Shown here: piece after piece, positions 2,641-61,770 of the stretch | Layout: each line of letters opens with the position of its first letter | Numbering within the stretch: the first letter of the stretch is position 1 | Assembly: GCF_964194155.1 (NCBI RefSeq) | Contig: NC_135887.1 | Span: forward strand, 8,184,001-8,248,000 | Origin: Cetorhinus maximus | Taxonomy: Eukaryota | Reading direction: 5' to 3' | Length of the DNA: 64,000 nt | The notes under the pieces: model-generated | The model's database searches: none | Told to the model about the DNA's origin: nothing | Seen by the model: the letters and a program-made list of their open reading frames with translations, nothing else | Translations under genes and position numbers: made by a program

Positions 2641-5600
2641 GTTTTCATTCATTCATTCCTCCCTAAAAAATGCAGATGTTGCACATGCCAGCTGGAGGTT
2701 AATTTGCTATTAAGACCATATGAATGAATTAAATATTTCATGGACTAAAGAAAATGTGATAGGAGGCCTAGAATGTCATAGTGAACAGGGCCGTATGCAG
2801 AGCTTAACAAAGCCTTTTTATTGTAACCCACAAATGGCTGAATGCAGCCACCAATTTATATTGGTTATTGAGGAGTGTTAATTTGGGGTATTGTTCGACT
2901 CCATTCAACCATCACTGCCACCAGCAATCAGGAGCTTGATTTATCTTTGCCTAGCTGATTAACACTTGTTTCAATTCACTGGAGTGATGGATACAGTTAA
3001 TCTGAGCTGAGTGCTGTGATGTGGTCACTTTGATCTCTTCATCGGGATTTTTAGGTCTATTTTATTGACATTTATTTAGGCAGGGCTGTTGTGTCTCATT
3101 TTACTTTCAGTGCAACTCACTGATTCCCAAAGAAAAGTTGTAAAAGCTTCTTGCTGCAATAAATAAACTCAGACACATTCTTTTTGGTAGTTTTCAATCT
3201 CTTATCCCTCGAATCTCATGCAGACAATAGCCTAACCTTGGTCCATGCCTGATGGACAGGTACCATTAGGTAAATCAGTTTTCAAAAGAAACTATTGCCC
3301 CTTTGGAATGGACAAATTGATCACAGAGGCCACTTCAATAGATTTTCTACCTTAAAGGAGGAAACTGGATTTAACTTCTGCATTCATTCTTAATTGGGTT
3401 TGGTGGCAGCACTGACTGATTGCACCCTGCTGTACAATATCAATGGCCCAAAATTCAGTAACAATGTGTGCTTCAGCATCAACTCACTGTTATTCCTGTT
3501 CACAAATGTCTGTATGATGTTGATCTCTCCTTAAAGTTGGCCATTGACTCATTGATGTACTTTCTCTGCCCCCCCAGCCTGCAGAGCTGCAAACCAAAAA
3601 TAAAGCCACAATCTGAACAAATGAGAAATGTGGTACTTGCTGAGATTTGGAGGCTAGAAATCGGGACAGCCTCTCTCGGTTAAACGACCCCCCGCTGTTA
3701 CAGACTGACTGACATTATTTTTAATTCGGGGCAGGATCACTGTGTGAGAGTGCAGGAAGCGGTTGGCAGGTGTGCACCACAAAAACCTGCTGATTTTAAG
3801 AACTGTGCTTCAGTTAAATTCTTAAGAGCTGTTTGAGCCTGAAGCAGGGATTTGGGGTGGGGGTGGCAGGAGCTGGACACTGCCAGGGGGACCTAAAGGA
3901 ACCATCCACATGGCTTAAAGTAAGTGCAGGGGAGGGGGGGCTTGCCGAACCCTTTCAGCTCCATAAAGGAAGGAGAAAGGTCGGAGATAGGGAGACACAG
4001 GACTCCATGTGGGAACACCCTCCTGCTTTCTGGTCTACAAGGGTTCTACATTAAAACTAACTTTTTTTTCAGTTTTCCCTGGCCTTTTCTGGACACTCTA
4101 CTTAGAGATGAGTACTCCTCTCCTCATGATATTCCTGTAATTGTAGCATCCAAAGCAACCCAATAGTCCTAGGGGGCTGGAACAGGAAACTCTGCCCTAC
4201 TGACCTTCGCTGGCCTGTGCACCCATGGGTGCCCGCAGTCCTCTGTTGCCTTGCTCAATTGGCCATTCATTATACATGAACCTCGACAGAGGTACTGTCA
4301 GGTTCTTCAACTGGAATCGACTGCAATCCTGCCTCCGTGAACAATCATGGGCGGAATCTTCCGCTCTGGCCAGCAGCGGGAATCATGGCGGGGGTGGCGG
4401 ACGCTTAATTTGGCGTTTCCCGACGGTGGGGAAATAGCTTGGAATTTTGTTCTCCCGGTTTTCAAGGCGGGTAAAGGTGGGTGGAGTTTCCCACTGAACA
4501 ATGTGGGGAGCCCATTTGCATTCATTAGCTTGTCCTGAATGCTCATTAAAAGGCCAGCTCACCACAATCCCCCCTCCAAATTAATTTCCCCCACCAGCGA
4601 CTGAGTAGAACGTCCTGTGTTGACGGCTGTATGTAATTGGGGTTACATTTGAGTTGATGTGATTTGCTATCTGTTTGTGACAGAGGCATGTAAAAAGGGG
4701 TGGAGGTTAAATTATTCAAGGACAGAAGCTACATGCACATTTCAAGCCTCACATGGCTTGTAAGGCACAATGCTTAAAGTCCTGACATTATGACAAGGCT
4801 GTGTTCTCTCTGTAGACTGTCTAGACTTATGGAGGCAAGCTGACAATTGCCTGACAGAGGATTCTCGCAGGTGGCTGTATTCACCCTGATCAAGACCCTC
4901 TTGTGCATACACAGTCATGTCTGAAGGGAAAGATCATCCACCTGTGGGTCCTCCAGGATGTGCTTCACCTGCAAGAGGTGGCCTGGGGCTGCCATGACTC
5001 GAAGGAGGCCTCCTGGCTCGGAGATGGAGGGAAACCAGTCAAGAGAAAGTTTAACTACATTCTCAAAATGTATCCATTGACAAATAGGCGTGGAGAATGC
5101 AGGCTTCAGGCACCCCTGCCTTGTTTATAGCTCTGATTCGAATGAGGCGAAGGGCCCATCACCAATTGGTACAGGTCCAGGGGGAGCAGCGGCCTGAGCC
5201 GCAAGAGGGGGCGGGGCCCGCGGAAGTCCCAGATGCTCCCAAAGAGGGGCAAGTTCAACCAAGACCAGTGGCCTGATCATTGGAATATAGAAGACGCTGC
5301 TCATATCTGGAGATGAGTGAAAGACAATACCACAGGCATCTTCGCTTGTCCAGGGAAGTGGTAGCTCACTCTTGCCACCCCCTCTGTGAAGAATCTGATG
5401 CCGCAAGGACTTGGAGGACATCCCATGCCAGTGGATTTGAAGGTTACTGCTGCACTGAGCATTTTTGCCAACGGGTCCGTCCAGGGCTTCAGTGGGGACC
5501 TTTGTGGCATTTTCCAATCGGCGACAACAAATGCATAAGGGAGGTGACAGATTTCCTTCTCACCAGAGCTCACCAGTATGTCCAATTCCGCATGGGTGCT

Positions 5601-10189: not shown

Positions 10190-10940
10190 TGCTGAGAACA
10201 AGCAGGAGTCCAAAGTGTAATGGAATGGGTGCAGCTGCAACAACACTTGAGATGTTCAACACCATTTAGACCAAGGCAGTAAGCTTCATTGGTGCCCCCT
10301 GTCACTGGGCTCAAAATCTGACACCTCCACTATCAGTTGCTGCAGTGTGTATGATCTACAGGATGCACTGCTGCACCTAACTAAGGTCGCTTCAATAGCA
10401 CCACCTGGCCCTACCTCCACCCCACCCCTCTCTCTCTCTCTTCAGGTACCATGCTCTAAGAGGGCATTGGTGACCATGGTTATGTTTGGCAAGCTACTGC
10501 AGTGGTTTGCCATTGCCTTCTGCAGGTTCTGGCTGACCAGGTATATTCGACGGATTTGCAGGTTGATAGTCAACCTGTTTGGCTATGCTATGGATGCGCC
10601 TTCCATGGCCATCAAGTCCCAGAGTGGGACTCGAATCCAGAGTTTCTGGCTCAGAGGTAGGGGCACTGCCACTATGCCACAAGAAAAGCAAGGGCAGCAA
10701 TATCATGGGATCGCTGTCACTTCCTAGTTCCCTCCCAAGTCTCACACAACCTGACTTGGACATAGGTCCCCATTCCTCCACTGCTGCTGGTTGAAATCCT
10801 CGAATTCCCCGCAGAATGCCATGTGAGAGCTGTATCACAACAGAGATTGCAGAGGTTCAAGAGGTGACCTACCAACTTCTCTGGGCAACTAGGAATGGAC
10901 AATAAATGCAGCCTTGCTGGCATCACCCACATCCCATGGA
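10190..10940 (+). mobile_element. Degenerate 3' fragment of the 24-27 kb LINE family, interrupted by a SINE
   Basis: Ends GGACAATAAATGCAGCCTTGCTGGCATCACCCACATCCCATG, like 27412-27455. Confidence 0.7.
10490..10685 (-). mobile_element. tRNA-derived SINE (family B)
   Basis: Minus strand TGGCATAGTGG (A box)...GATTCGAGTCCC (B box); related copies at ~22145-22300 (+), ~28300-29250 (-) and ~32720-32840 (-). Confidence 0.7.
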
Positions 10941-12740
10941 AAAAATGTTTTTTAAGTATCTAATGACACCATTCTAAGCAGTTTTCACATTTCGTATCAT
11001 TCTTCAATCAGCCTGTTTTATCAATGTACAGAGTAGCCTGATGAGCGGTTTATGTCACATCTTTATGGCTGCAAAATAATGCAAGTAGGAAAATAGCCGG
11101 CTCAGTGAACTGTTTAATGTCTTCTGTCACTGATGCATGTCGGAATTTAGCATATGGCTCTCTATGAATGCTTAGTTTCCGACTTGCAATTGCTCTGAAT
11201 ATTTTACTTAATTCAAAAAGATTGAAAGCCTCTGGCAGGGAAGTATAGAGAGTGGAAATAAAAGCCCATTGCAGTAAGAGGTAGTCCCATAAGGTAGAGA
11301 CTGCATTGTACTCTTGGTGTCAGTAAGTCCAGAACTCTCCTGTCACCAAAATCACTGTCAAAACTGTAATGGAAAAAAGCCACAGCCCAGAATATTAGAC
11401 CATTTAAACTAACTTATGTAATTTCTACAACTAATATCAACTAAATGTAAGGCACCATTTGAGGCCCAGTTTGGATTATAACGATCAAAATCAGAATTCA
11501 TCAGTTGATTACGTCCACAAGGACTATATTCTTTTATTGTTAGGGGGAGAAAGATTCCTGTTCAGTGTTAAAATTTGACTACCTAGCTCACCGTTCTCTT
11601 AACAGTTTTTTATTCCCTGAAAACAGACGGGGCGGAATGTTCCGTGCACACTGGCGTCTGGGGTGTTTGGCGACGTGAGTGGACAATATGGCGAGAGGGC
11701 CAAAAAATTGGTTTCACGACGTTGTGGAACCAGTTTGCAATCGTTTGCTCTGCCCGTCAGTGGCGGGCCCCGTTTCCCGCTGTTGGATGTCAATAACCTC
11801 TTTGTAATGCCTCTGCGTCTCATTATAAGCCCAACCCGCCGGAATCATTTGGCGGGCCGCACTTTGAGGGGAACTATGGAGGTGAGTGCACAATAACGTT
11901 GCACAGCGCTTGCGTGGGTTGCCCATTGGACTTCAAGGTGGAGGCGTCTTGGGGGGGTCGAGGCGAATTGGTGGAGGGGGGTGGTGTGTGGCAACAGCTG
12001 CCCTGTGGTTGAGGCGAGACGGGGGGGCGGTGCAAGGAGTGCAAGGGCTGCCCTGCGGCTGATGGTAGTGTACAAGCACGTGTGGGGTTGGGAGAAGGGA
12101 AGTGGCCACACATCAGTGAAACCTTGTATAAAGTGACCATTCCTCCGCAGCTGAGATAATTCAGACGCAGCCACATTGATACGATTGGAGTCGGGCCTCT
12201 AGCTTATCTGCCCACTCAGGCAACGCAGAGTCATGAAAGTGCCACCAAGTGCTCCAGAGCTTTTCACTCCTCAGGCGCAGACTGCAAACTCATGAGTGTT
12301 TTAGTGGACTGCAGAACAGTTGGACGACTGGGCACATTGTACAATCTCCTCGCTAAAGCTGGCCGTAGAGCAGTCACTGCTGGAGGAGCTCACAGACCCT
12401 TGCAAAGTCATCATCCCGGTTTGGGCCAGTCTCCCCCATGGTTCGCGCTAACAGGGCAGCCTTGCAGTGTGGGTTAGGAGAATGCCTGTGCCCGAGCTGA
12501 GAGCACAGCATGCAGTCCAATGGGCAAAGCTGCTGGCAATCGGTCAGGTGGAGTGGGGCAGAGGAGGGTGGGGTTTCGGTCAGCCATGCAGTGCACTAAT
12601 CTCTGGCCATCCAAGTGGTGGCCAGCACTCTCTGGGATGTGTTAAGGGGCCTTTAGACTTAACCAAGAGAGGTTCTTAGGACACCCATGCTAACCCATGT
12701 ATCTCTCTCTTTCATCCTGCAGGAGGAGTACATCAGGAAC

Positions 12741-13965
12741 ATGGAGCCTGGTGAACTAGCTGTATGCCCCATGGCTTACAGAGAGCAGAGGCAATGGAGA
12801 AGAGAGCGACAGAGGCGCCTGGCTGTGCAGAGGCAGAAGCAGCACCCTCAGGAAGAAGGGGTGACTGGGGCTCCCACACACGCCGCTGAAGAGGCACAGT
12901 GACCCGTTGCTGGTCGGTGCCTAACTAGACCCAGGGCTCGTCGAGGCTGCCTTTCATTCCTGCAGATGACCAAGAGCCAGTGTCACCGTAGACTGCGCGT
13001 GTCTAGGGACTGGTCGGTCACATCTGTGAGCTGCTGCAGGATTTAGCACCAAAGGGGGCATGGAGGGCATCCACTGCCAGTGGCTGTGAAAGTGACTGCG
13101 ATGCTCAATTTTTACACCAGTGGCTCTTTTCAGGGCTCCACTGGTGACCTCTGTGGGATATCACAAGCCTCCCACCCCCACCCACAAATTCATCCATGAG
13201 GCCACGGATGCCACCTTCTCGAAGGCACACAACATTTCACCCGGGAGCAGGAAAGCCAGGATGCAAGAGCGCTGGGATTTGCCCAGATCTCAGGTTTCCC
13301 ACAGGTGCAGAGTGCCATCACGTGGCGCTCAGATCCCTGTCGCAACAAGTGGTCAACTATGTCAACCGCAAGGGCTCCCCTTTGCTGAATGTGTAGCTGG
13401 TCTGCGACCACCACAAACACATCTTGCAGGTCTGTGCTCGATTTCCAGGTAGTATCCACAAGTCCTACATTCTTAGTCAGTCACAGATTCCTGATGTCTT
13501 CCAGGGTCCACTGAGGCTGCAGGGATGGCTCCTCAGGGTCAAGGGCTATCCACAGAGGCCGTGGCTGATGACACTTGTGTGGCAGCCTCAGACTGCAGCA
13601 GAGTGAAGGTATAACAAGGCTCATGCTGCAGCTCACAACTTGGTGGAGCAGACCATCAGGATGCTGAAGATGAGGTTCTGGTGCCTGGACCAGTCTGGTG
13701 GAGCCCTGCAATATAGGCCACAAAGCGTGTCACACATCGTCGTCGTCTGCTGCGCCCTTTGTAACTTGCCGCTGCAACAGGGAGAGGAGATGGAGGAGCT
13801 GGAGGTCACCTCCAATGAGGAGGACGTCAATGGGATGAGAGTCAGGAGGTCCTCGAAGGTGAGGATGATGGTGATGAGGCCATTGCACTGGCCAGATGAG
13901 GCAAGCGTGCTCGGGAGGCCCTCATAGCTGCCGGATTTGTGGAGGATGATGACGACATGCAGTGA
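12741..13965 (+). pseudogene. HARBI1-like transposase pseudogene
   Basis: SFLQMTKSQCHRRLR, AVKVTAMLNFY, FPQVQ, NRKG, QVCARFPGSIH, KGYP, VEQTIRMLKMRFWCLD, VVCCALCN and an acidic tail; stops and frameshifts. The first catalytic D is deleted and the second reads V. Confidence 0.88.
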
Positions 13966-14639
13966 GGAGACACCACAGATTGTCACATTGTACCTGTGAA
14001 TGTTTGACTCCAGTCTGGCTTGTGGCAATGTGTATACCCCCTGTGAGAAGGCTCCTGTCATGGAGACGCAGCACAGGCCCGAATCGTTGCCTGATTCCAG
14101 GAGAATGATGACAATATGCAGTGAGGACGCTCCATACACCTTCACGTAGCCTCTGAGAATGTATGGCTGAGGGCCACTCGCACTCTGTGACCAGGGCCGT
14201 ATCCTACAGGGGCAGCCCTGAAACTTTAAATGCACCTGATCCTTTGTCAGCCTTCAGCACCTGACCCCTTCAGGACCACAGCGGCACCAGACACAGAGGC
14301 TGAAGAGATGGGGGGGCCAGCCCCACCTCAAAGCTACTGAGAGAATGATGGTGCTCGATGATGCCTACCCACGACATTCTGGCAGCAATGACGAGCACTG
14401 TCGAGGTGCAGGCATCAGTAATGTGTCCAGGGAGTGTGAGGCTGGACCCTCACTTTGGCCTGAAGGTTGCACAAAGCACAGAGAAGAGGCCCTGGACTGA
14501 GACACCTGCCTTTGTCTTGTGCAGGAACCAAGGTTTCACATCTGAGTGACATGAACCCCGCTCATCAAACAAGGAGCAATAAGCAGGGAGACATTCTTGG
14601 GAGATTACATAATATTCACAATTGTAAATACAGGAGATT

Positions 14640-16290
14640 AACACCCGTGCCCAGACTGTGCAACTACACCTTCTTAACCTTCCTAATCTTCCCTGACGCT
14701 ATGCCTTGGTGCTCCCTGGACGTCCACAGTGGAGGTGGAGGTAGCCTGTTGACTGCTATACCTGGACTCTGATGACCTTGGCAGGTGTCCTCTGGAGGGC
14801 CCCGACCTGCTTTTGGGGTCCAGCTATGTGGCAGTGGGACCCTCCTCGGCCTGTGGAGCTAGAGCTACTGGGGTCACAGGAAGAGGGGATTTGGATGGGC
14901 CGGACACTCCCAGAGTCATCTAGGTGGATGGCCCCGGGGCGTGCGCTTGCTGAACTCCTTCCCCATGGGGGCCTGAGGGGATGGGGTAGCTGGAGTGAAA
15001 TCGAGCTGCCCCAATCCCCCCCTCGTGTTGACACTGTTGGAGGCCAGCTATGGCGTCAGTGATGGAGTTCATCCCACGCAGCAGTGCAGGAGCGACGTCC
15101 TGGGCTAAGGTCTCTATGGTGGCCACCATCCTGCTAGTGTTGACCTCGGTGCGTTGCAATGCCAGCGCCATCACCTCAGACTGAAGGCGGACAGACTCCC
15201 CCATCGTGCCTTGCAATCTGAGGAGTGCAGCGGACATCCCTTCCTGATGTTCCCGAGCTTGGCTTTGCAGCTCCAAGTCCAGAGTTTCGTCATCTGACTC
15301 GGACTCAGCAGATTTCTGGCCTCCAGCCGTCCTCCGAGTGCCTGAGACCTGGGAAGTCCCTGCCACCGCCTGCTGTGGATCAGACAGTGCGACGTGCTCA
15401 CCAAATTGTGACCCTGAGGTTACTCTAGAACTAGGTCCCACCGAGGTGTGTGTCTCTGCGCTGGTGGAGGGTGTGGGTGAGCGCTGTGACAGGACTTCAA
15501 GAAGGGTGCCTTCAGAGGTTTCGTTGGGGCTTGAGATGAGGCCCTGGGTCTGTTTCCCAGATGTGCCTGCGAAAGCAAGGGGAGATAATTAGTGCAGGGC
15601 AGTGGCCTGCGAAACAGGACACATCACTCACAGCCTGGTTGTCTGAGGGATGTTGCACTGCTGGATCCTCATTGGTAGAGCACCACTGACCTCAGCGTCA
15701 GCACAGGAATGGTCCCGGTCATCGCCGGCCAGCTGGCTGGCTCTATTTTCAAATTCCATGAGAACCTTGACTTCAGGCATTCCTCCAACAGTCTGTGACC
15801 TCTCCCTTTTGTTGTGTGCCAGCTTGTCCTGCATGAATAGAGATGGAGAGGCCAGATGATAAGTATGCCTGGCATGTGTGGGTGGTGAGTGGTTCCACGG
15901 ACGGGATGGGGAAAATGAAAGTGTGTATGAGAGAGTGAATGGTGGTGTGTCCCTTGAACTATCAGTGAGTGTGATCCTTGTGGATGTGTGGGGTTGTGAG
16001 CGTGTGAGTTGAGAGTGATGAGAAGAGAGACTTACCCTGGCAGAACGAAGGTGATCATTCATCCTCTTGCGGCACTGGGTGGCTTTCCTCTTTTGCAGGG
16101 CATTGGTGCTAACCATCACTGCCACCGTCTCCCAAGCCGGATTGGTGATGTTGCTGGCCCTCCTGCGGCCAGGGCTGGGGTATAGGACATCATCGCAGGC
16201 CTCCACGATATCCAAAAGGCACTCAAGGTTCACGTCACTAAACCGGTCGGTGGGTGGGGGTGCTGCAGTCTTCTTGCTCTTTGTGACCAT
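14640..16290 (-). pseudogene. Spliced Myb/SANT-like (trihelix) DNA-binding gene of the Harbinger element
   Basis: Exon 16290-16036 (MVTK...RFSDVNLECLLD...AWETVA...TQCRKRMNDHLRSAR) then GTAAGT; exon 15828-15632 (DKLAHNKRERSQTVGG) then GTGAGT; exon from 15566 after TTTCGCAG. The 3' end is approximate. Confidence 0.82.
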
Positions 16291-17369
16291 GTCTTCTGTG
16301 CAGCAGTCCTGAGCTGGAAGCACGGAGAGGTGTGAGCGCTTTAAATATGGTGCCCAGCGTGAGGAAGCGCTGAGGTGATGGTGTTGCCGGCGAACAAGAG
16401 CTCGTCTGCCATCGAAACGGCATGCTTCCCGGGAATGCACAATTAGTGCAGCGGGATTGGGATGATACCGTGTGAGAAGCCGCCAGTCGGCAAATCGTCG
16501 TTTCTCCCGCCCGCTATCGCACTTAGTACAAATTTGGGACGATTCCCCCCTCAGTCTTTGTAGGTTTAACTTTCAATTAGGATTGAGGCACTGCTCGGGC
16601 ATCATCACTGTGATAAAGTGAGAGGTGGCCACACCTCACCGGAAACCTTCTTAAAATGACAGAGTCAAATCCTCAGATTGTCTTGTCCCCTGAGAGACCA
16701 GAGGAAGCGATGTTCGTCAGTCGAGCATTAAGACCCAAATTCCTGCTCTTTCCCGCTTATTGTCCTATTTGGTGAACTTTGCGGTTGCACAGCTACTGGT
16801 CTTAAAAATCTATGTGCATTATTTTCAGACTGAGCCTATGAAAATGCCTTTTTTTGATAAGTCACATTTATATAATTTTGAAAGTATTTGGAATATTGTT
16901 TTCCGGCTGTAACTTTTTAAAATGAGCAGCTGTTTTCTAGCGGTCACATTAAAGCTGTCGGCAGCTTTAGAAGTTGGTCACTATGCATTCCAGAAAGGGC
17001 AATATAGAGATTTATTGCAGGGCTTTCCATTGTATTCTTTTAATGGAGAACATGCGACCAACGCACTGCTCAATCTGGTGGATGAAGTGTAAATTCTGAA
17101 ATTAGTTAATTGGTAAAAAGGGCATTCCTGAAACCTTAAAGAAAGCCCATCTTATTCATCAGCATTTGCCTGCCAGACAGATGAAACATTAATACTGATG
17201 AATAGAACTGGGCCAAGAGTTCACATTTACAAAGAAAAGATGCAATGACGGAATAAATGCACTGAGTCGTGTGCAAAAATAGATTGCTATTTCAAATAAA
17301 ACCTAAGGAAAAGCTAATGGATTATTCCAGCATATTTCATTTTTGTCTATCCCAATGCATAGAATAGAA

Positions 17370-22712: not shown

Positions 22713-23699
22713 AGTAATATTGTCACTGGACCATGTTACGTCCGCAGCTGATGTTATTCGCTGAGCAAGCCAAATCCCAGAGGGAAACTTGCCTTACTGA
22801 TCATAACTTTTTTTTTGTATTTTGAAAACGAGGGAAAACTACTAATCCCAGAAGCGTATAATCCCAGAAGTGCTTTTAGGATTTTAAAATTAAAAGATTT
22901 ATTAACAAGAAGAAAACAAAAACTTAAACCCGCGAGATTAAAATTACACAGTTAAAACAGTCGTATAAAATACACCCCCAAAAAACCCACTTGGTCAGAA
23001 CACACAGGTAAACTACTTGGCAACAGCTCCCGTATACATTTTAACCAAAAAATTCATTAATATTACCCAAGGCAAAAACTGCTGCTACTTTAATATGGTA
23101 TACCACACAACTTCTCACTCTCTTCCACTCTGCAGTGGATATCCCAGAAAGAAGGGTTCAGAAGCAGACTGCTTTCTAAAAACAAAAACTTCTCTGGCTT
23201 GAAACTGGATGGATGCTTCAAATTCACAACTTATCTCAGCACAGAGCTGGTCTCAGCACATCTCCCCCACACAGCCAACACAATTCAAATTAACATCTCC
23301 CTTAAGTATTTTTTTCCCTTTCACCCGAGATTCCATTGTCCTAAGCATTTCTTTGAACTAATTTTTTTCCAAAATTTATAAGTTCTTCATGCTTTCCTAT
23401 TGTCTCCATTTTCAGGTAAAATAAAGTTTAATAACCTTCCCTTATTTACTTATGAAACCTTTGGAACTTGTAAAAGTCCCTTGTCACTTCTAAACTCCCT
23501 TTCAAATTTAGCAGCTGAAAAGTCAAGTCCTTATCTATCACCTAATGCAAATTTGAAAACCCAACCCATTTACTTGTATATTCAATTTCACCATAGCCTC
23601 TCATTACAAATGCATGCATCCATCAACTTTACCTTTCATCTCTGCTTCCACAGACAAGCTGTCTTTACGAACCTTCCCCCAGTTTAATCACACACACTC

Positions 23700-23813
23700 T
23701 CTCCCTCTCCCTCTCAACACTGTCCTCTCCCAGCTACAACACAGGACTACTCCCTCTCCCTTTCCCTCTCTCCCTCTACAACACAGGACTACTCCCTCTC
23801 CCTCTCTCCCTCT
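23700..23813 (+). repeat. CT-rich minisatellite running into the gap
   Basis: CTACAACACAGGACTACTCCCTCTCCCT occurs twice, ~43 bp apart. Confidence 0.75.
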
Positions 23814-24062
23814 NNNNNNNNNNNNNNNNNNNNNNNNNNNNNNNNNNNNNNNNNNNNNNNNNNNNNNNNNNNNNNNNNNNNNNNNNNNNNNNNNNNNNNN
23901 NNNNNNNNNNNNNNNNNNNNNNNNNNNNNNNNNNNNNNNNNNNNNNNNNNNNNNNNNNNNNNNNNNNNNNNNNNNNNNNNNNNNNNNNNNNNNNNNNNNN
24001 NNNNNNNNNNNNNNNNNNNNNNNNNNNNNNNNNNNNNNNNNNNNNNNNNNNNNNNNNNNNNN
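23814..24062. other. Assembly gap (249 N)
   Basis: Run of N. Confidence 1.
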
Positions 24063-24112
24063 AATACCACCATATTACCAAAAATATTTTTAAAATAACA
24101 TCAATCTTCACA

Positions 24113-27100
24113 ACTAGCACTCTGGGGGACCCAGGATAATGCCCTAGGGACCCAGGTTCGAATCCCATGATGACAGGTGGTGGAATTTGAATTCAATAAA
24201 AATCTGCAAGTCTAATGAAGACCATGATCCATCTGGTTTACTAATGCTCTTCAGGGAAGGAAATCTACTGTCTTTACCTTGGTCTGGCTCTAGACCGACA
24301 GCAATGTGGCTGTCCTTTCAGTTGTATCAAACCACTGAAAAAAGTCAATAAAAAGGAGTGAAACTGGATGGATCACTCGGCATCAACCAGGCACTGGAAA
24401 TGACAACAGCAAACTTGGCCCTGTCAACTCTGCAAAGTCCTCCTTACTAACATCTGGGGATTGTGCCAAAATTGGGAGAGCTCTCTCACAGACTAGTCAA
24501 GCAACAGCCTGATGTAATCATACTCACGGAATCATACCTTACAGACAATGTCCCAGACACCACCAACACCATCTCTCGGTATGTCCTGTCCCACCAGCAG
24601 AGGTGGCAGCACAGTGGTATACAGTCGGGGGAGGAGTTGCCCTGGGAGTCCCCAACATTGACACTGGACCACATGAAATCTCATGGCATCAGGTCAAACA
24701 TGGGCAGGGAAGCTTCCTTTTTTTTTTATTCATTCAAGGGATGTGCACTTTGCTGGCTGGGCCAGCATTTATTGCCCATCCCTAGTTGGCCTTGAGAAGC
24801 TGTTGGTGAGCTGACTTCTTGAACTGCTGCAGTCCATGTGGTGTAGGTACATCCACAGTGCTGTTAGGAAGGGAGTTCCAGAATTTTGACCCAGTGAAGG
24901 AACAGCGATTAGTCCTGCTGATTACCATGTACCGTACCCACCCCATCCCCCCAAACTGATGAATCAGTGCTCCTCCATGTTGAACGCCACTTGGAGGAAG
25001 CACTGAGGATGGCAAGGATGCAGAATGTTCTCTGGGTGGGGGACTTCAATGTCCATCGCCATGAGTGGCTCAGTAGCACCACTACAGTCTGAGCTGATCG
25101 AGTCCTAAATGACATAGCTGCTAGACTGGGTCTGTGGCAGGTAGTGAGGGAACCGACAAGAGGGAAAAATGTACCTAGCCTTATCATCACCAACCTGCCT
25201 GCCGCAGATGTATCTGTCCATGACTGGATTGGTAGGAGTTACCAACGCACAGTCCTTGTGGAGACCAGGCCCCATCTTCACATTGAGGATACCCCCCATG
25301 TTGTGTGGCACTACCACCATGCTGACTGGGAATGATTTTGAACAGATCTAGCACCTCAAGACTGGGCAACCTTGAGGCTCTGTGGGCTATCAGCAGCAGG
25401 AGAATTGTACTCGAACACAATCTGTAACCTCATGGCCCGGCATATCCTCCGCTCTACCATTACCATCAAGCCAGGGGATCAACACCAGTTCAATGAGGGC
25501 ATGCCAGGAGCAGCACCAGGCATACCTAAAATTGAGGTATCAACCTGGTGAAGCTACAACACAGGACTACTTGCATGCCAAACAGCATAAGCAGCAAGTG
25601 ATAGCTGGAGCTAAGCGATTCCACAACCAACAGATCAGATTTGAGTCCCGCAGTCCTGCCACATCCAGTTGTGAATGGTGGTGGACAATTAAACAACTCA
25701 CTGGAGGAGGAGGCTCAACAAATATCCCCATCCTCAATATTGGGGGAGCCCAGCACATCAGTGCAAAAGATAAGGCTGAAGCATTCGCTACAATCTTCAG
25801 CCAGAAGTGCCGAGTGGATGATCTGTTTTGGCCTACGCCAGAGGTTCCCAGCACCACAGATGCCAGTCTTCAGCCTATTCGATTCACTCCACGTGATATC
25901 AAGAAACGGCTGAAGGCACTGGATACTGCAAAGGCTATGGGCCCTGACAATATTCCAGCAATTGTACTGAAGACTTGTGCTCCAGAACTTGCCACACCCC
26001 TAACCAAGCTGTTCCAGTACAGCTACAACACTGGAACCTACCCAGCTATGTGGAAAATTGTCCAGGTATGTCCTGTACACAAAAAGCAGGACAAATCCAA
26101 CCCGGCCAATTACTGCCTCAGCAGTCTACTCTCGATATCAACAGAGTGATGGAGGGAATCATCAACAGTGCTATCAAGCAGCACTTGCTTAGCAATGACC
26201 TGCTCATTGACGCTCAGTTTGGGTTCCGCCAGAGCCATTCAGCTTCTGACCCCATTACAGCCTTGGTTCAGACAAGGACAAAAGAGCTGAACTCCAGAGC
26301 TGAGGTGAGGGGAACTGCCCTTGACATCAAGGCAGCATTTGACCGAGTGTGGAATCAAGGTGCCCTAGCAAAACTGGAGTCAATGGGAATTGGGGGAAAA
26401 CTCCCCACTGGTGAAGTCATACCTAGCACAAAGGAAGATGGCTGTGGTTGTTGGAGGTCAATCATCTAGGTTCCAGGACATCACTGCAGGAGTTCCTCAG
26501 GGTAGTGTCCTAGGCCCAACCATCTTCAGCTGCTTCATCAATGACCTTCCTTCCACCATAAGATCAGAAGTGGGGATGTTCACTGATGATTGCACAATGT
26601 TCAGCACCATTCGTGATTCCTCAGATACTAAAGCAGTCCATGTCCAAATGCAACAAGACCTGGACAATATCAGGCTTGGGCTGACAAGTGGCAAGTAGCA
26701 TTCGTTTCACACAAGTGCCAGGCAATGACCATCTCCAACAAGGGAGAATCTAGCCATCGCCCCTTGACATTCACTGGCATTACCATCATTGTATCCCAAC
26801 TATCAACATCATGGGGGACACCATTCACCAGAAACTGAACTGAACTAGCCATAAAAATACTGTGGTCACAAGGTCAGGGGCTAGGAATCCAATGGCAAGG
26901 AACTCACCTCTTGACTCCCCAAAGCCTGTCCACCATCTACAAGGCACAAGTCAGGAGTGTTATGGAATCCTCTTCACTTGCCTGGCTGAGTGCAGCTCCA
27001 ATAACACTCAAGAAGCTCGACATCATCCAGGATAAAGCATCCTGCTGATTGCCACCCCATCCACAAACATTCACTCTCTCCACCACTGATGAATAGTTGA

Positions 27101-27460
27101 AGCAGTGTGTACCATTTACAAGATGCACTGCAGGAACTGACCAAGCCTCCTTAGGCAACACCTTCCAAACGCATGACCACTGCCATCTTGAAAGACAAAG
27201 GCAGCAGACACATAGGAACACCACCACCTGGAAGTTCCTCTCCAAGCCACGCACCATCCTGACTTGGAAATATATCACCGTCCCTTCACTGTCGCTGGGT
27301 CAAAATCCTGGAACTCCTCGCCTAACCACACTGTGGGTGTACCTGCAGCACATGGACTGCAGCGGTTCAAGAAGACAGCTCATCATCATCTTCTCACAGG
27401 CAATTTTGGATGGGCAATAAATGCTGGCCTAACCAGCAATGCGCACATCCTATGAATTAA
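24113..27460 (+). mobile_element. Near full-length CR1/L2-group LINE (APE endonuclease + RT), decayed, preceded by a tRNA-like head
   Basis: APE motifs QPDVIILTESYL and WVGDFNVH; RT motifs KAMGPDNIP, QFGFRQ, LDIKAAFDRVW, GVPQGSVLGP, FTDDCT; tail GGGCAATAAATGCTGGCC...CACATCC; B box GGTTCGAATCCC at 24155-24166. Confidence 0.9.
24719..24910 (-). mobile_element. Antisense 3' tail of the same LINE family nested in the LINE
   Basis: Poly-T then ATTCATTC...GGCCAGCATTTATTGCCC; TCCT duplicated on both sides. Confidence 0.8.
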
Positions 27461-27834
27461 TAACTTTAAGGGCTTAAGGCAAACTGCAAGTTCTTTTCAC
27501 CTGTTATCTCCCACTCTTCTCCCCCTGCCCCAATACCTGTCAGCTTGGTTGCCTCTCTCAGTGTGATTTCCATGATGTGTCGATTATGCGCAGTCTTGTG
27601 CTATGGATATATTTGGATGCAGCCTTGAAACAATTCCAATTAATTTCACTTGGGACACTTGCTGCTGGGAGAGGAGACCCTGATCCCATTAGTCTAGACT
27701 GAATTCAGACTCAGGTTCCAGGTTTGAAAGGGGAATTGATTAATCAACTATGCCCCAAGGCTCCCTCTGGCATTTATTGTATCCTGATTTAAATTGAGCC
27801 CTTGCTTAGTAGGATACTTAAGCAAGCTTTCTTT

Positions 27835-33649: not shown

Positions 33650-33925
33650 TTTATTTTATTCGTCCTTGGGATGTGGCCAACAGTCATTGCCCATCTCTAT
33701 TTCAGAGGGCAGTTTTAAGAGTCAACCACATTGGGTCTGGAGTGAGGACAGCAGATTTCCTTCCCTGAAGGATATTAGCCAACAACAATCGACTATGGTT
33801 CCAGATTTTTATTGAATTCAAATTCCACCATCTGGCGTGGGCGGGATTCGAACCCGGTTCCCGAGAGCATTAGCCTGGGTCTCTGGGTTACTAGTCCAGT
33901 GACAACACCGCTATGCCATCGCCCC
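33650..33925 (-). mobile_element. tRNA-derived SINE (family A) with LINE-shared tail
   Basis: Minus strand TGGCATAGCGG (A box), GGTTCGAATCCC (B box), GAAGGAAATCTGC, and tail GATGGGCAAT...CACATCCC. Confidence 0.85.
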
Positions 33926-35219
33926 TTTTAGACACTTCACTGTAACAGTATCTCACGGACAGACTTGACACGTAAATACATGGAATGCCATAACGTTGAG
34001 GTATTTATGCAATAGAAAACATGCCCAAAAAGTTTAGGGATTGTCCATTTTAGAGTGAGTGAATTTTTAATAAAGTTGCGATCCTTAATCCCTGCCAAAT
34101 ATCAGCTCTGGCACTGAAAATTAACTTTTAAACATACTCTGTCTGGTTCCTTCAGACTTCGATTATCAGAGATATTTTAAAACTTTAATTTTTAACTTTC
34201 CTTCTGGCTCTTCTCTCTCTCTTAATTCCATCTTTCTTGCCCTCTTTATTCCGCTTTCTATACATAACTTTACATTGAATTCAATATTCTAACTTCCTGT
34301 TCAGACTCTGTGTGCTTCAGGAAGATTTCAGACAGGGATGTGAAATAAGTGCAGCATCCATTACATGAAGTGAGCTCCTGGGCAGAGCAGTAGAGACTAT
34401 AATAGGATTTGAGCATCTTTCTAGATGGATGAATAAAGATGGGCCAAATGGCCTTCCTTATCCATAATTATTTAATGACCTTGTAATGGCTATTCATCAA
34501 ATCTATGTTATTGAAAAAAACAATTGAAAGCATTCAGCCTGTAACATGGCTCTGCCCTGCCCTCTGCTGTGTGTGGCAGTCTTTTGCCACTGATTTGCCT
34601 CTTTTTTCCATGCTTTTATTTTATGTGAAATCATAGAGTCACTCAGAGCTCCTGAAAATTAGATGGTTTCTGCTCCGATCCTGCCACCCTGCACACTCTC
34701 AACATAATGAACAAAATGTAATCTACAGTAGCTCTGACTAAATGCAGAGTATAAAGGGGGAACAAATTATACAATTGAAAAGAAATTAGCATACAAGATA
34801 AACTAATCATGACTATGGGTATCTTGTAGCAGTAAGCAATCATTTATAACCCTTTTGTAAAACTGTGAAAGATGAGCATTTCATATTGGTACAGACTGAT
34901 TTTTAAGAAGTTAACCAGAGGTTTGTTTATCATAACCTGCTCATTGTGGATAAATATGATGAAAGCTGGAGCTACACCAAGGTCTGCTCCATTGGTATTT
35001 AGAGATGAACCAACAGTGAGTTTGATCCCAAACCTCATATATTCCATGACTGAACTACAGCTCCTATTTAGATTAGCTTCTCTTTAATCCACTTCATTTT
35101 ATCTCCTTGTTATTTTGGTATATTTTGTCTCTTCAACATTCCTTGGTCGAGGAGATTGCCAGATGATCTCCCCTACTGCAGCCCACACCCCCTCCCAACG
35201 CCAATCCAGCCCAGCCTCT

Positions 35220-35615
35220 TTTTTAATTTATTCTTTCAAGGGATGTGGGCATCACTGGCTAAGCCAACATTTGTTGTCCATCCCTAATTGCCCTTGAGAA
35301 GGTGATGGTGAGCTGCCTTCTTGACCGCTGCAGTCCATCCAGTGCAGGTACACTCACAGCGCTGTTAGGAAGGGAGTTCCAGGATTTTGACCCAGCAACA
35401 GTGAAGGAATGGTGATATAATTGGGGTGGTGTGTGACTTGGAGGGGAACTTCCAGGTGCTGGTATTCCCATGCATCTGCCTTTATTCTTTTAGTTGATAG
35501 AGGTTGCGGGTTTGGAAGGTGTTGCTGAAGGAGCCTTGGTGAGTTACTGCAGGTGCATCTTGTAGATGGTACATAAGGCTACCACTTTACATCTGTGGTG
35601 GAGGCAGTAGGTGTT
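35220..35615 (-). mobile_element. 3' fragment of the 24-27 kb LINE family
   Basis: Reverse complement of ~27080-27460. Confidence 0.85.
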
Positions 35616-35869
35616 TGAAATAAATGTTGTCAAATCGTTTGTAAGTAAAGGCTAAATGGTGCAGGAGAGGGCCCAGTATCACTTGTCACATTGAATTTTT
35701 GGCTCAGATTAGGTCCCAGTTTGTTTTGTGGCCTTGACTAGTTGAGGAAAACTAAGCAAACCTTTGCCATTGAAAGACAATTATCTTAACCTATTGACCA
35801 GGTAGTGTGCAATACTGGATTACACTGATTTACCTGGTAGTTTTCCCTCCCTTAGGAACGTCAATACAG

Positions 35870-39285: not shown

Positions 39286-39502
39286 TTGAAGAAAATAACC
39301 TAAGGTAGCAAGTCTCCTTTTGAAGTCATAATGTGATAATTCGAGATAACTTCAGTGTCCTGGAGGTAAAATGGTCAGATCAGAGACAACCATATAGGAG
39401 TGAAAGTGTAAACAATTGCTCAGTACAACATATGAAGCAAAGTTTTACATTGCCTTGCGTAAGAACAATAATCGCCCTTCAAATAATTAATTTGTATGTT
39501 TT

Positions 39503-39803
39503 TTTAATTCGTTCATGGGATGTGTGCGTCGCTGGCTAGGCCAGCATTTATTGCCCATCCCTAATTGCCCTTGTTCACAGGGCATTTTCTTTTAAGAGTC
39601 ACATGTAGGCCAGACCAGGTAAGGACAGCAGATTTCCTTCCCTAAAGGGCATTAGTGAACCAGATGGGTTTCATAGTCATCATTAGATTTTTAATTCCAG
39701 ATTTCTTTTATTGAATTCGAACCCAGGTCGATCCCAGGTCCCCAGAGCATTACCCTGGGTCTCCAGATTACTAGTCCAGCGACAATACCACTATGCCATT
39801 GCC
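39503..39803 (-). mobile_element. tRNA-derived SINE (family A)
   Basis: Minus strand TGGCATAGTGGTATTGTCGCTGGACTAG...GGTTCGAATT...GGAAGGAAATCTGC...GGGATGGGCAATAAATGCTGGCC. Confidence 0.85.
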
Positions 39804-47080: not shown

Positions 47081-49020
47081 TTTGGTTATTTTTTTACTGT
47101 TTCTATTTACAGAGAATATTTGAATATCCCACAACATATGTGTATATATACAGCTCAGGTGATTAAAAATGAAGTCTCTGAGGTGCTTTTCCTTATTTGG
47201 TTAGAGTGGTGTAGCTCTACCACTTGAGGTTCTTCCACTGGATTGACATGTTAATGAACTGCAGCACCAGGTACATCATTAGAAAGTGGAATTTCAGGGT
47301 TCGGCAACTCTACGGAGACATTGGGCCTGTCTATTCTAGCGCAGTCTGTCACCTCAGGGATTAATGGTTCACCGTTACTCACAGGCGGAACAGCTGGTTG
47401 TTGGAATGTCTCTCTATTCCTAAAATGATCCACATGTTTGCGAATAATTCGGTCTTCCACTTCCACCTGGAAGGACAAAGGACCCGTTTCTGAGACAATT
47501 GTACAAAGGACTCAACAAGATCCCCTTCTAAAATTCTGCACAAAAACTGTGTCTCTTACAGTGAATCTTTGAGCTTTGCTATGAATATTGTGATTCAATT
47601 TTTGATTACTCTGATTCTTCTCTGCCTTCCCCTCTTAAGTTTGGAACAACCAGATTTAACCTTGTACGTTGTGTCAATAATTCAGACGGCATTGAACCTG
47701 TAGTTGAATGAGGCCTTATACGATAATCGAGAAGAAAGCGGGAAAGTCGAGTTTCTAGAGTACCTTCTGATAACCTCTTCATTCCAGATTTGAAAGTTTG
47801 CACAGCTGTCTCAGCTAAACCATTTGATGAGGGATGGTATGGGGCTGTTTTAATATGTCTGATTCCATTTAAACCCATGAATCTCTGAAACTCTGTGCTG
47901 GTAAAGACTGTACCGTTATCAGAAATGATGACTTCCGGTAGGCTTTTCGACATGTGCGCTCAATGTCGATGATCTGACTTCATTCACATCCATCTATTTA
48001 GAGTGCGCATCTACGATCAATAAAAACATGGTACTTAAGAATGATCCTACATAATCAATATGTAGTCTACCAAGGTCGACCAGGCCACTGCTATTATGCG
48101 GTGGAGCTGAAACAGGCAACTTCATGTTGCTGCTGGCAATGGAGACAGTGCTTGGCCATGCTTTGAATGTCACTGTCTATGCCTGGACACCAGAAAATGC
48201 GTGAGCATTTTCATCTTTGATATACCTGGATGCGCACTGTGAAACCCTGTCAAGAATTATTCCCTTCCTTGCGAAGGGACGACAGCTCTTGATCCCTACA
48301 GCAGGATTCCGTCTTGACAACTCAACCCTGTTTTTCGGGCATGGAATGGTCTCAACTCTTCAGACACTGGTGAATTTGACCACCCGTGTAATACAAGGTC
48401 TCTGCCTTTTGACAAAATTGGATCTCTGTTTGCCCAATTCCTAATTTGCTTCATGCACGCAGGCAAAGAATCCAAGAAATTCAGCACAAACACAGCTACT
48501 TGTGGCACTGGAGCATGTACTATGCTATCTGGTAACAGGAGATTACTGAGTGCGTCCCCATTTGCAATATACAAGCCAGGACGGTGCATAAAGGTATACT
48601 CATAAGCAGATAATATCAAAGCCCAACATTGAATTCTTGCTGATGCTATTGGTGGAATGGCCTTATCCTCACTGAATAAACCCATTAATGGTTTAGGGTC
48701 CAACACAAAGGTGAAGTATCATCCATGCAGGTACTGGTGGAATATCTTCACTCCGAATATCACCAATAAACCTTCCTTTTCTAGTTGGGAATAATCCTTT
48801 TTGGCTGTGGAGAGTGTTTTGGAGACATAGCCAATTATCCTTTCTGATCCCCATCTTCCATTCTATGTGGTAACACAGCCCCCACACCATAAGGAGATGC
48901 ATCACATGTTTCGATAGGTCATAGTGTACTGATAAACGTGATGAATGTAATAGCTTCTTAACTTTCACAAAGGCTTCTTCTTGTTGTGAATTCCACGACC
49001 AACGATGATTTTTTTTTTTA

Positions 49021-49192
49021 AAACAAAAACAAAAATACCTGGAAAAACTCAGCAGGTCTGACAGCATCTGCGGAGAGGAACACAGTTAACGTTTCGAGTC
49101 CGTATGACGTTCTGATGAAGAGTCATACGGACTCAAAACATTGACTGTATTCCTCTCCGCAGATGCTGTCAGACCTGCTGAGTTTTTCCAGG
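49021..49192. mobile_element. Fold-back Penelope terminal fragment (71-bp inverted repeat) with hammerhead motif
   Basis: Arms 49038-49108 and 49122-49192, 67/71 complementary, with a 13-nt spacer containing CTGATGA. Confidence 0.9.
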
Positions 49193-50705
49193 ATATTTAT
49201 CTAGTTTGGCTGCCTTGCTCACGGTTAATATATAGTCCTCACAAATGCATATAGTTTGGTCAGGTTTCACCACTGGGACTATGGGCCCTATTGGACAGGC
49301 TGAATGATGTCCAGCTTTTCTAATTGGCACAGTTCTGCATCCACCTTCTCCTATAAGGCATAAGGCACAGGTCTGGCCTTAGAGAAACGGGGAGTTGCCT
49401 GAGAATGCGCATATATTTTTGCTTGCAAGCCGTTTAACTTCCCTAGTTCATCACGAAATACACTGTCATATTTCCTTAGCAGTTCAGGAACTCCACCTGT
49501 TCGCAAGTGAAATATTTCCAGCTGAGCTTGATGTTTTGTAAGACTAAGTCCTTCATCTGTCACTATGGTCACTGGAAGCTGGGCTGTCTGTCTATAGGAC
49601 ACAAGTACTGTGGCGATGCCTTTTACCCACGTGGATTCTCCAGTGTATATCTTCAATTGAGCCATTGTTCGCTCCAGGTTCAGTGGCTGGGTACCTCCAT
49701 TAACTTGGAGTGTGACAGTAATGGGTTTGGTGTTTACCGCTGTGACATTATACGGGGAACAAATGTTGGTATTGGCAGCTTCAGGTTCTGTTGCATTATT
49801 CAATTGAATCATATTGGGTAGCTGCCTTATAGGGCTGTTTCAATTTTGCCCTGCATTGCTTTATTACATGAACTTTTTTAATGGCAGTAATGGCATTCTG
49901 CCTCCTTGAATCTGCAGGTGTCCGGTATGTGGTCACCCCAAATATATAACAGATTAACCTTGGAGTCGCTGCTGAAATGTATCTACTAGGCCTTTTTCGA
50001 TTTCTAACAGCAGAGATTGCCTCTCGCTTCGCTGCTGTGTCTCTGGTTTTTGCGCTACTCCCGGCGATAGGCTCCCGCCCCACATGAAGGACAGCGCCGT
50101 GTTGTACATGTTGTAAAGCCTGTGAGTCTCTCGCAGCACTTTCCATGGCTAGCGCTATTTCCATGACGCACTTCAAATCGATGTTAACTTCGAGTAAATG
50201 GCGCTGAGCTCCACAAACTGCAGCATATTACTTGTGTGTGTCTCCGAAGTTGCAGTGCTCTGTCAACTGCTTCAACTTCACGATATGAGTTGTGATGGAA
50301 TCTCCTGGGCCCTTACTCTGGAATTAAACTTAAACTTCTGCATTATTACGGATGGTTTCAGCTGGTAATGTGTTTTCACGAGTTCTACAAATTCATTAAA
50401 GGACTTAGAATTAGGCGTGTTCAGGGCCTCAGGCTGCAGATGAGATTGTATGTCTTGCTACCACATAAGCACAAAAGGATTGCCTTCTTCTTCTCCTCTG
50501 TGATAACTTTGTTTGCTATGAAATAAAAATCAAGGAGCTCTACATACTGGCTCCAGTATTCCAAAGCCGCATCGTAAGGATCGATTCTGCCAAAGAGTGA
50601 TATGACTGGTGAGTGTTCTTTTCTCCTAAGATTTGATGTATGTTTTGACCCAGCAGTTGGTAAAGCTGAATTATTTAAAAATCTCAGAGGGAAACTTTAA
50701 ACAAC

Positions 50706-58661: not shown

Positions 58662-59750
58662 ATTTCATTCATGGGGTCTGGGCTAGGCCAGCATTTATTG
58701 CCCATCCCTAATTACCCTTGAGAAGGTGGTGGTGAGCTGCCTTCTTAAACCGTTGCAGTGCATGTGGTGTAGGTACATCCACAGTGCTGTTAGGGGAGTG
58801 GTTCCAGGACTTTGACCCAATGAGAGTGAAGGAATGGCCATATATTTCCAAATCAGGATGGTGTGTGACTTGGAAGGGAACTTCCAATTGGTGTCTGCTG
58901 CCCTTGTCCTTCTAGATGGTAGCGGCCATGGGTTTGAGAGGTTCTGCCTAAGGAGCCTTGGTGAGTTCCTGCAATGCACCTTGTAGATGGTACACACTGC
59001 TGCTACTGTGCATCAGTGGTGGAGGGAGTGAATGTTTGTGGTTGGGGTGCCAATCAAGTGGGCTGCTTTGTCCTGGATGGTGTCAAGCTTCTTGAGTGTT
59101 GTTGCAGCTGCACTCATTCAGGCAAGTGGAGAGTATTCCATCACACTCCTGACTTATGCCTTGTAGATGGTGGACATGCTTTGGGGAGTCAGGAGGTTGA
59201 GTTACTCACTGCAGGATTCCCAGCTTCTGATCTGCTCTTGTGGCCACAGTATTTATGTGGCTAGTCCATTTCAGTTTCTAGTCAATGGTAACCCCGAGGA
59301 TGTTGATCGTGGGGGATTCAGTGATGGTAATGCCATTGACTGTCAAGGAGCGATGGTTAGATTCTCTTTTGTTGGAAATGCTCATTGTCTGGCACTTGCT
59401 TGGATCGAATGTTACTTGCCACTTGTCAGCCCAAGCCTGGATATTGTCCAGGTCTTGCTGAACTTGGACATGGACTGCTTCAGTACCTGAGGAGTCATGA
59501 ATGGTGCTGAACATTGTGCAATCATCAGCAAATAGCCCCACTTCTGACCTTATGATAGAAGGAAGGTCACTGATGAAGCAGCTGAAGTTGGTTGGGTCTA
59601 GGACACTCCTGCAGTGATGTCCTGGAGCAAAGATGATTGACCTCCAACAACCACAACCATTTTGCTCAGCGCTACGTATGAATCCAACCAGTGGAGAGTT
59701 CTCCCCCTGATTCCCATTGACTCTAGTTTTGCTCGGGCTCCTTGATGCCA
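58662..59750 (-). mobile_element. 5'-truncated copy of the 24-27 kb LINE family
   Basis: FSCFISDLPSIIRSEVGLFADDCTMF...QQDLDNIQAWADKWQVTF; same 3' tail. Confidence 0.92.
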
Positions 59751-61489: not shown

Positions 61490-61672
61490 AAATCCATAGC
61501 TGCGTTTAAGGGAAAGCTAAGTGCGCAGATGAAGGAGAAAGGAATAGAAGAATATTGATAAGGTTAGAGAAAGTAAAGTGAGAGGAAGCTTATGCAGAGC
61601 ATAAACACCAACATAGACAAGTTGGGCTGAATGGCTTATTTTTGTGCTGTAAATTCAGTGTAATTCTATGTT
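61490..61672 (+). mobile_element. CR1-type 3' tail
   Basis: TTTAAGGGAAAGCT...GAGCATAAACACC...TTGGGCTGAATGGC; similar to 37125-37270. Confidence 0.7.
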
Positions 61673-61770
61673 TTTCTTTATTCTTTCATGGGATGTGGGC
61701 GTCACTGGCAAGACCAGCATTTGTTGCTCATCCCTAATAGCCCTTGAACTGAACGGCTTGCTAGGCCACT
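61673..61770 (-). mobile_element. SINE family A 3' end
   Basis: Minus strand GGCCTAGCAAGCCGTTCAGTTCAAGGGCTATTAGGGATGAGCAACAAATGCTGG...CACATCCCATG. Confidence 0.75.

Follow-up and report, generated by a model that had tools for sequence, protein, structure and literature searches.

A tRNA-like head on the Zenon LINEs of sharks and a ray, with possible consequences for their transcription and for the origin of their SINEs

Zenon elements and the closest described systems

Long interspersed nuclear elements (LINEs) that code for protein are usually assigned to RNA polymerase II (Pol II), and the non-coding short interspersed nuclear elements (SINEs) to RNA polymerase III (Pol III) (PMC5786205). 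Here we analyse a Zenon LINE at positions 22714-27463 of a 64,000-nucleotide stretch of Cetorhinus maximus DNA (NC_135887.1, positions 8,184,001 to 8,248,000; hereafter the window), a dead copy of an element that opens with a tRNA-like head. This head is family-wide and occurs in sharks and in a ray. As judged from its sequence, the family is probably a coding LINE transcribed by Pol III that sheds ready-made SINEs. The elasmobranch Zenon family itself is already known: in five elasmobranchs it is described as having a poly-A tail and no first open reading frame (ORF1) (Stuart et al. 2026, PMC13343379). Its head and the consequences of that head are undescribed in the literature we searched, which included few subscription papers and lay outside Repbase and Dfam: neither a Zenon with a tRNA head nor a LINE transcribed by Pol III turned up there. 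The main text of PMC13343379 gives 0 matches for 'tRNA' and 'polymerase III', and no description of the head, of T-run avoidance, of the missing AUG or of derived SINEs was found in the part of that paper examined.

Several described systems share some of these features. Lepidopteran Zenon LINEs (Wang et al. 2019, PMC6740152) gave rise several times independently to derivatives that join their 5′ and 3′ parts by internal deletion and were then amplified; Persaeus, one of these short internally deleted elements (SIDEs), has no tRNA homology or Pol III promoter, whereas the derivative found here is a full tRNA-headed SINE. In the bipartite derivatives Bov-A/Bov-tA and those of RTE and Vingi (Kojima 2018, PMC5786205), the 5′ and 3′ parts of the SINE come from one LINE, as here, but the tRNA head was added after the deletion, while here the coding LINE already carries it. 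The V-SINE HE1 and the CR1 element HER1 of sharks and rays (PMC3747384) pair a tRNA SINE with a CR1-group LINE through a shared tail, again as here. Canonical CR1 tails (PMC7245038) nevertheless differ from that of Zenon, and the CR1 copies of this genome appear to belong to another clade. By eye, the body of the Zenon SINEs bears no resemblance to the printed domain alignments of the Meta, Deu and UCON3 conserved domains. The HE1 body, too, is presumably different from it. The labels HE1/HER1, MetaSINE and Daphne, considered for these repeats, were dropped after the comparison of tails and the match to the Zenon consensus. Among coding non-LTR (long terminal repeat) elements, R2 takes a non-Pol II route, with an uncapped RNA and non-standard initiation. 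It is co-transcribed with rRNA and cut out by a ribozyme (processing cited in PMC5786205); in contrast, searches of the Zenon 5′ region for ribozymes and other Rfam families had no match at E≤1 (5 loci) and only weak ones at E≤10 (6 loci).

The family majority sequence, built from 22 pieces of 17 loci (of 20 extended loci, the three named L045-L047 are not included), is 3291 nt long: the head and body precede a single frame of ~975 codons, which is followed by the tail and poly-A. Natural copies match PF14529 and PF00078 in Pfam. The single ORF spans endonuclease (APE) and reverse transcriptase (RT) with no ORF1, and the element ends in poly-A, as in the named elasmobranch set that includes CarCar, ScyCan, RhiTyp, SquAca and HypSab (PMC13343379). 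Over the first ~400 nt, compared by motif search and by eye, the sequence matches published elasmobranch Zenon; the first 400 nt of CarCar_Zenon-1 (length 3288 nt) agree with our majority nearly letter for letter. In a FastTree phylogeny of the RT, with support below 95 and no named Zenon reference, the family branches apart from the CR1 copies of the same genome and near a lepidopteran and an amphioxus protein. The absence of an ORF1, which the initial annotation had singled out, is borne out, but it is normal for Zenon and published (PMC13343379) and not unusual. Close relatives of 935-983 aa (P0015, P0017, P0022, P0024) lie on contigs of 3.6-4.1 kb, barely longer than one ORF, as expected of elements without ORF1. 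Predicted shark proteins in public sets (P0002, P0004, P0006-P0008) contain spliced-in pieces of the Zenon ORF at 65-76% identity and are likely annotation artefacts.

The window copy lies on the forward strand and is ~10% diverged from the majority (89.8% identity across 24913-27463). Its head is cut in two by a later TG…CA insertion at 22734-24112, likely a solo LTR and no part of the LINE; the flanks of this insertion, ACCA and ACTA, are a 4-bp duplication of head sequence and differ at one base. The first half (22714-22733, …ATTGTCACTGG-ACCA) is a remnant that has lost, by absence or erosion, the initial ~17 nt of the head with most of the A box. The second half starts at 24113 (ACTA-GCAC…), carries the B box GGTTCGAATCC at 24155-24165 and continues into the non-coding body common to the SINEs, which closes with TCAGTT at 24318-24323. 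A LINE-only leader follows (24324-24439), then the ORF (24440-27408), broken by stops and frameshifts, for which the Pfam matches come from sister copies, and a 3′ tail common to the SINEs with a short A-rich tract at its end (27393-27463). An antisense, 5′-truncated copy of the same LINE is nested at 24720-24909 (minus strand), and its poly-A explains the T-run near 24720. The initial annotation had joined the two halves of the head across the LTR, followed them through TCAGTT into the APE-RT frame with no poly-A or SINE tail between, and called the A box eroded. We reach the same structure, except that the endonuclease motif LLTNIWG (~24440) stands ~120 bp past the end of the body and not ~150. 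Among 12 full-length LINEs and 6 SINEs inspected for target-site duplications, none had a convincing one.

The tRNA-like head across the family

We ran three genome searches whose queries comprised the leader and the start of the ORF, with the head excluded. They returned 87 non-self loci, 86 of them anchored. With gaps of up to 700 bp tolerated to span nested insertions, sixty-six of the 86 anchored copies extend upstream into the head, 15 reach the body only and 5 end at the leader. Their starts cluster: 55 copies begin at most 12 nt, and 44 at most 3 nt, from one common 5′ end. A fixed-position sample of 580 kb (58 of 60 requested stretches existed) contains 8 copies that reach the ORF start; the body is present in 6 of these, and 4 of the 6 extend as far as the head. 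In the same sample, the summed matches of the Zenon family and its SINEs amount to ~9%, which makes them a main component of the genome.

The same arrangement is found outside this genome. Contigs of two other organisms span the join of body and ORF, and seven published elasmobranch Zenon consensuses, from five species of sharks and a ray, open with the same head, by motif search and by eye over their first ~400 nt. Over the same length the head was not found in two hagfish and one coelacanth consensuses, which have T-runs there. The initial annotation had proposed that a different 5′ untranslated region or an ORF1 in other copies, or a junction unique to this locus, would speak against the link of head and LINE, and that other elasmobranchs be examined; neither a different 5′ end nor an ORF1 emerged, and the junction is widespread. 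A SINE that came to lie by chance next to a truncated LINE is almost certainly not what we see in the window. SINEs are indeed frequent, and at one locus with an older-type head (L158/L323; head types are described below) ~230 bp separate head and ORF, but the 66 headed copies, the published consensuses and the contigs of two other organisms all stand against such an adjacency.

Compared with 22 tRNA gene sequences of five isotypes, the head scores best with Val(tac) (z 4.3) and Thr(tgt) (z 4.8). Weighing against the Pol III reading, no parent tRNA emerged: the Rfam tRNA model gives no match on the head, and ARAGORN calls a tRNA there at only 4 of 52 loci. Among metagenome relatives, a B-box motif was found upstream in 1 of 80, and the relaxed ARAGORN calls were noise.

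Promoter boxes, T-runs and the start of translation

A type 2 Pol III promoter has an A box near +10 and a B box 30-60 nt downstream. By this spacing rule, the boxes of the majority sequence are correctly placed, the A box at 11-21 and the B box at 75-85. As expected of a Pol III unit, no run of four or more T occurs on the non-template strand ahead of the 3′ end: on the sense strand of the majority (3.29 kb), homopolymer runs of at least four number 0 for T, 14 for A, 11 for C and 9 for G. The majority of the older subfamily also lacks TTTT across 2985 positions. Within the ORF, TTT occurs 4 times, against 13.0 expected in shuffles that keep the protein and the codon usage (0 of 5000 shuffles reached a count this low), and T4 occurs 0 times where base shuffles give 4.4 (P 0.012). 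Interrupted runs, counted as five-base windows that contain four T, are rare as well (1 observed, 6.7 expected, P 0.0075).

Other LINEs differ in this respect. In the same genome, six CR1 majority segments (from eight queries, two of which yielded none) carry 3-6 T4 each, and of two Tx1-like copies of equal T content, one carries 9 T4 over 5.0 kb and the other 4 over 3.0 kb; Penelope-like rows were set aside, their coding strand being unconfirmed. ORFs of related LINEs from metagenomes contain TTTT in 80 of 80 cases, the closest by score holding 36, 20 and 4, and their observed/expected ratio for TTT has a minimum of 0.59 and a median of 0.99 (n = 75), compared with 0.31 in Zenon. TTTT-creating changes among genomic copies are alike in frequency to those elsewhere (C→T 10/189 vs 1524/25673), a comparison that is uninformative for dead copies. 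The depletion of T-runs agrees with what selection for Pol III read-through predicts, short of proof. One of the controls, at L092:374-5405 (plus strand), is an apparently intact Tx1/L1-type element, with an ORF1 of 538 aa (ZCCHC3-like RNA-binding domains and a zinc knuckle) and an ORF2 of 1141 aa (APE, RT and zf-RVT).

A tRNA-type head followed by 3.3 kb free of TTTT suggests that the element is likely read from end to end by Pol III. TFIIIC would bind the internal A and B boxes, and Pol III would start ~10 nt upstream of the A box, pass through the terminator-free ORF and halt at a T-run in the flank. Since this RNA would carry no cap, its translation would have to start in a non-standard way, either at a non-AUG codon or by a -1 shift from a conserved out-of-frame AUG, and the protein would copy the RNA starting from the shared 3′ tail. 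Internal deletion of the coding middle would then leave a complete SINE, because promoter and tail occupy opposite ends; at least two such deletions would have been amplified. The fuller version of this proposal, in which elasmobranch Zenon is a natural Pol III protein-coding retrotransposon whose uncapped mRNA of 3.3 kb has been clear of terminators from before the separation of sharks and rays and is translated with no in-frame AUG, and whose SINEs arise in one deletion, seems to us evenly poised between right and wrong. If it is true, a LINE that unites a tRNA promoter with an ORF free of terminators would break the division between Pol II and Pol III elements and offer a natural test of a long, translated Pol III RNA. 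It would also give a one-step route to the birth of a SINE and an origin for the SINE 'body', an open question according to PMC5786205.

The alternative is that Pol II transcribes the LINE from a promoter in the head, the body or the flanks, the tRNA head being a passenger or an auxiliary and the poverty in T-runs a product of other pressures on the RNA, such as U-rich decay, splicing or polyadenylation signals, or slippage of the RT. We hold this to be rather unlikely. Coding LINEs are taken as Pol II units (PMC5786205), the derivatives of lepidopteran Zenon have no Pol III promoter (PMC6740152), and TT dinucleotides are low throughout (o/e 0.71), beyond what the avoidance of terminators needs. 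Yet other LINEs of the same genome, under the same Pol II pressures, are not depleted, both boxes are conserved across sharks and the ray, and the 5′ ends of the family cluster 10 nt before the A box. The lack of an in-frame AUG, described below, would be as awkward for Pol II.

Several further results weigh against transcription by Pol III. The absence of T4 from the ORF is not significant alone when protein and codon usage are kept (0 vs 2.1, P 0.089), which also favours Pol II. Most control LINEs are richer in T, and the T-poorest carries one T4 only. Natural RNAs known to be made by Pol III are far shorter and non-coding. To these is added the translation start. The majority frame is open from ~position 302, and the leader, open in the frame of the endonuclease, encodes an Arg-rich stretch before it; an AUG in this frame first occurs beyond the endonuclease, and no mechanism that would initiate translation ahead of it was found. 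Of 65 copies, 54 keep an AUG that stands 92 nt ahead of the NIWG motif, and in the 43 of the 65 that have no indel there it is out of frame. The ray consensus has the same spacing from AUG to motif, counted by eye, and the window copy has GTG in place of this ATG (24358).

A non-AUG start or a -1 shift would thus be needed under any reading of the Zenon sequence. The basic N-terminus of the relative P0015 resembles the Arg-rich stretch. Variants shared among copies single out no frame of the leader as the selected one, the 5 found there falling at all codon positions; in the endonuclease, 9 of 11 fall at third positions and the frame is evident. A subfamily with an in-frame AUG was considered and rejected: the open frame in L126 stems from a private deletion.

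SINEs of the family and other repeats of the window

Three SINEs on the minus strand of the window have head or body sequence and the tail in common with the LINE. The one at 39499-39803 belongs to the younger subfamily and joins the tail at element position 292; that at 33650-33925 is decayed, with body to ~position 293, and ARAGORN calls a tRNA-Thr on its head; the third (61672-61770) is a 5′-truncated fragment of the older subfamily with its junction, TCAGTT|CAAGGG, at position 315. The shared parts had been recognised in the initial annotation, but the single junction assumed there gives way to two. Across the 4.0-Gb genome, the exact motif of the position-315 junction occurs 1717 times and that of position 292 occurs 2880 times, with 0 for the reversed controls.

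We classed heads by eleven sites defined from seven older SINEs, one site lying inside the 292 motif. Among SINEs picked by their junction, 15 of 15 with position 315 have older-type heads (three marginal) and 14 of 15 with position 292 have younger-type heads. LINEs with older-type heads are fewer (9 of 67), and the Zenon consensus of spiny dogfish has this type (PMC13343379). Of 15 LINEs with older or intermediate heads, 11 have older alleles at linked sites of the ORF, and the ORF alleles of all 29 copies with younger heads class as younger. At the level of diagnostic sites, SINEs and LINE subfamilies agree. Two SINE subfamilies with different junctions, each matching the head of one LINE subfamily, point to repeated internal deletion.

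The products of deletion have the form of SIDEs, with 5′ and 3′ ends colinear with the LINE and the middle missing. We found 18 head-to-tail junctions in 210 loci, 13 of the two amplified types and 5 others. Four of these 5, all one-off deletions, retain LINE-only sequence on both sides (319→3188, 331→3178, 516→2969 and 652→3085), and head-to-tail joints also occur in data of three other organisms. Repeated deletion from the contemporary LINE would be the simplest reading of these SINEs.

Some results fit this reading less well. Three of the 15 LINEs with older or intermediate heads have younger ORF alleles (1 is tied), so that heads appear to be exchangeable, which also fits recombination with SINEs. 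In addition, the copies that the diagnostic ORF sites classify are those from which these sites were derived, L323 being excluded from the older-subfamily test. Another possibility is that an independent tRNA SINE came first and gave its 5′ module to Zenon, that the present SINEs continue this lineage, and that their heads were matched to the LINEs by template switching. We consider it unlikely. Exchange of modules among SINEs is documented (PMC5499810, PMC4824008, PMC5786205), mosaics of older head and younger ORF exist, and the first capture is older than the oldest copies seen. The two amplified SINEs, moreover, enter the tail at almost identical positions (3216-3217), so that loss of 23 nt from the 315 form could have produced the 292 form. 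Against this, the 292 SINE has head and tail variants of the younger LINE and the 315 SINE those of the older one, deletions that retain LINE-only leader and ORF sequence occur, and none of the 18 head-to-tail junctions joins a head to a foreign tail, in a search that sought this tail only. The initial annotation had offered as alternatives the capture of a tRNA promoter by the LINE and the birth of the SINE by internal deletion. These are compatible, and both are supported.

A few loci deserve mention in their own right. L317/L125, L345 and L336 combine an older-type head with younger-type ORF alleles and are either intermediates or products of head swapping. A third SINE-like group, of much greater age, shares the tail but has a body that has diverged; it is found at L073 (plus strand, ~2560-2960), L096 (minus strand), L085, L099 and L063; one of its copies retains the LINE leader and the ORF's end, and an equally old LINE copy, L074, joins the body to the ORF.

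The window contains further pieces of Zenon, 5′-truncated or fragmentary, at 58681-59750, 35213-35617 and 1109-1201 (all on the minus strand), and a much older one at 10683-10937 (plus strand, ~71%). The TG…CA element at 22734-24112 has 2764 candidates in the genome. Its other copies measure ~1.0 kb, 4 of 7 being closed at about this length and 2 of these 4 having a 4-bp duplication, as expected of the solo LTR that it likely is. Fragments at 48299-50227 (minus strand) resemble, by eye, the protease, RT and RNase H of an LTR retrotransposon. Two of the 58 sampled 10-kb stretches (L052 and L105) consist wholly of a high-copy tandem repeat. Finally, a repeat at 12096-16572, whose minus strand contains long open frames of 314, 222 and 206 aa, recurs at several sampled loci.

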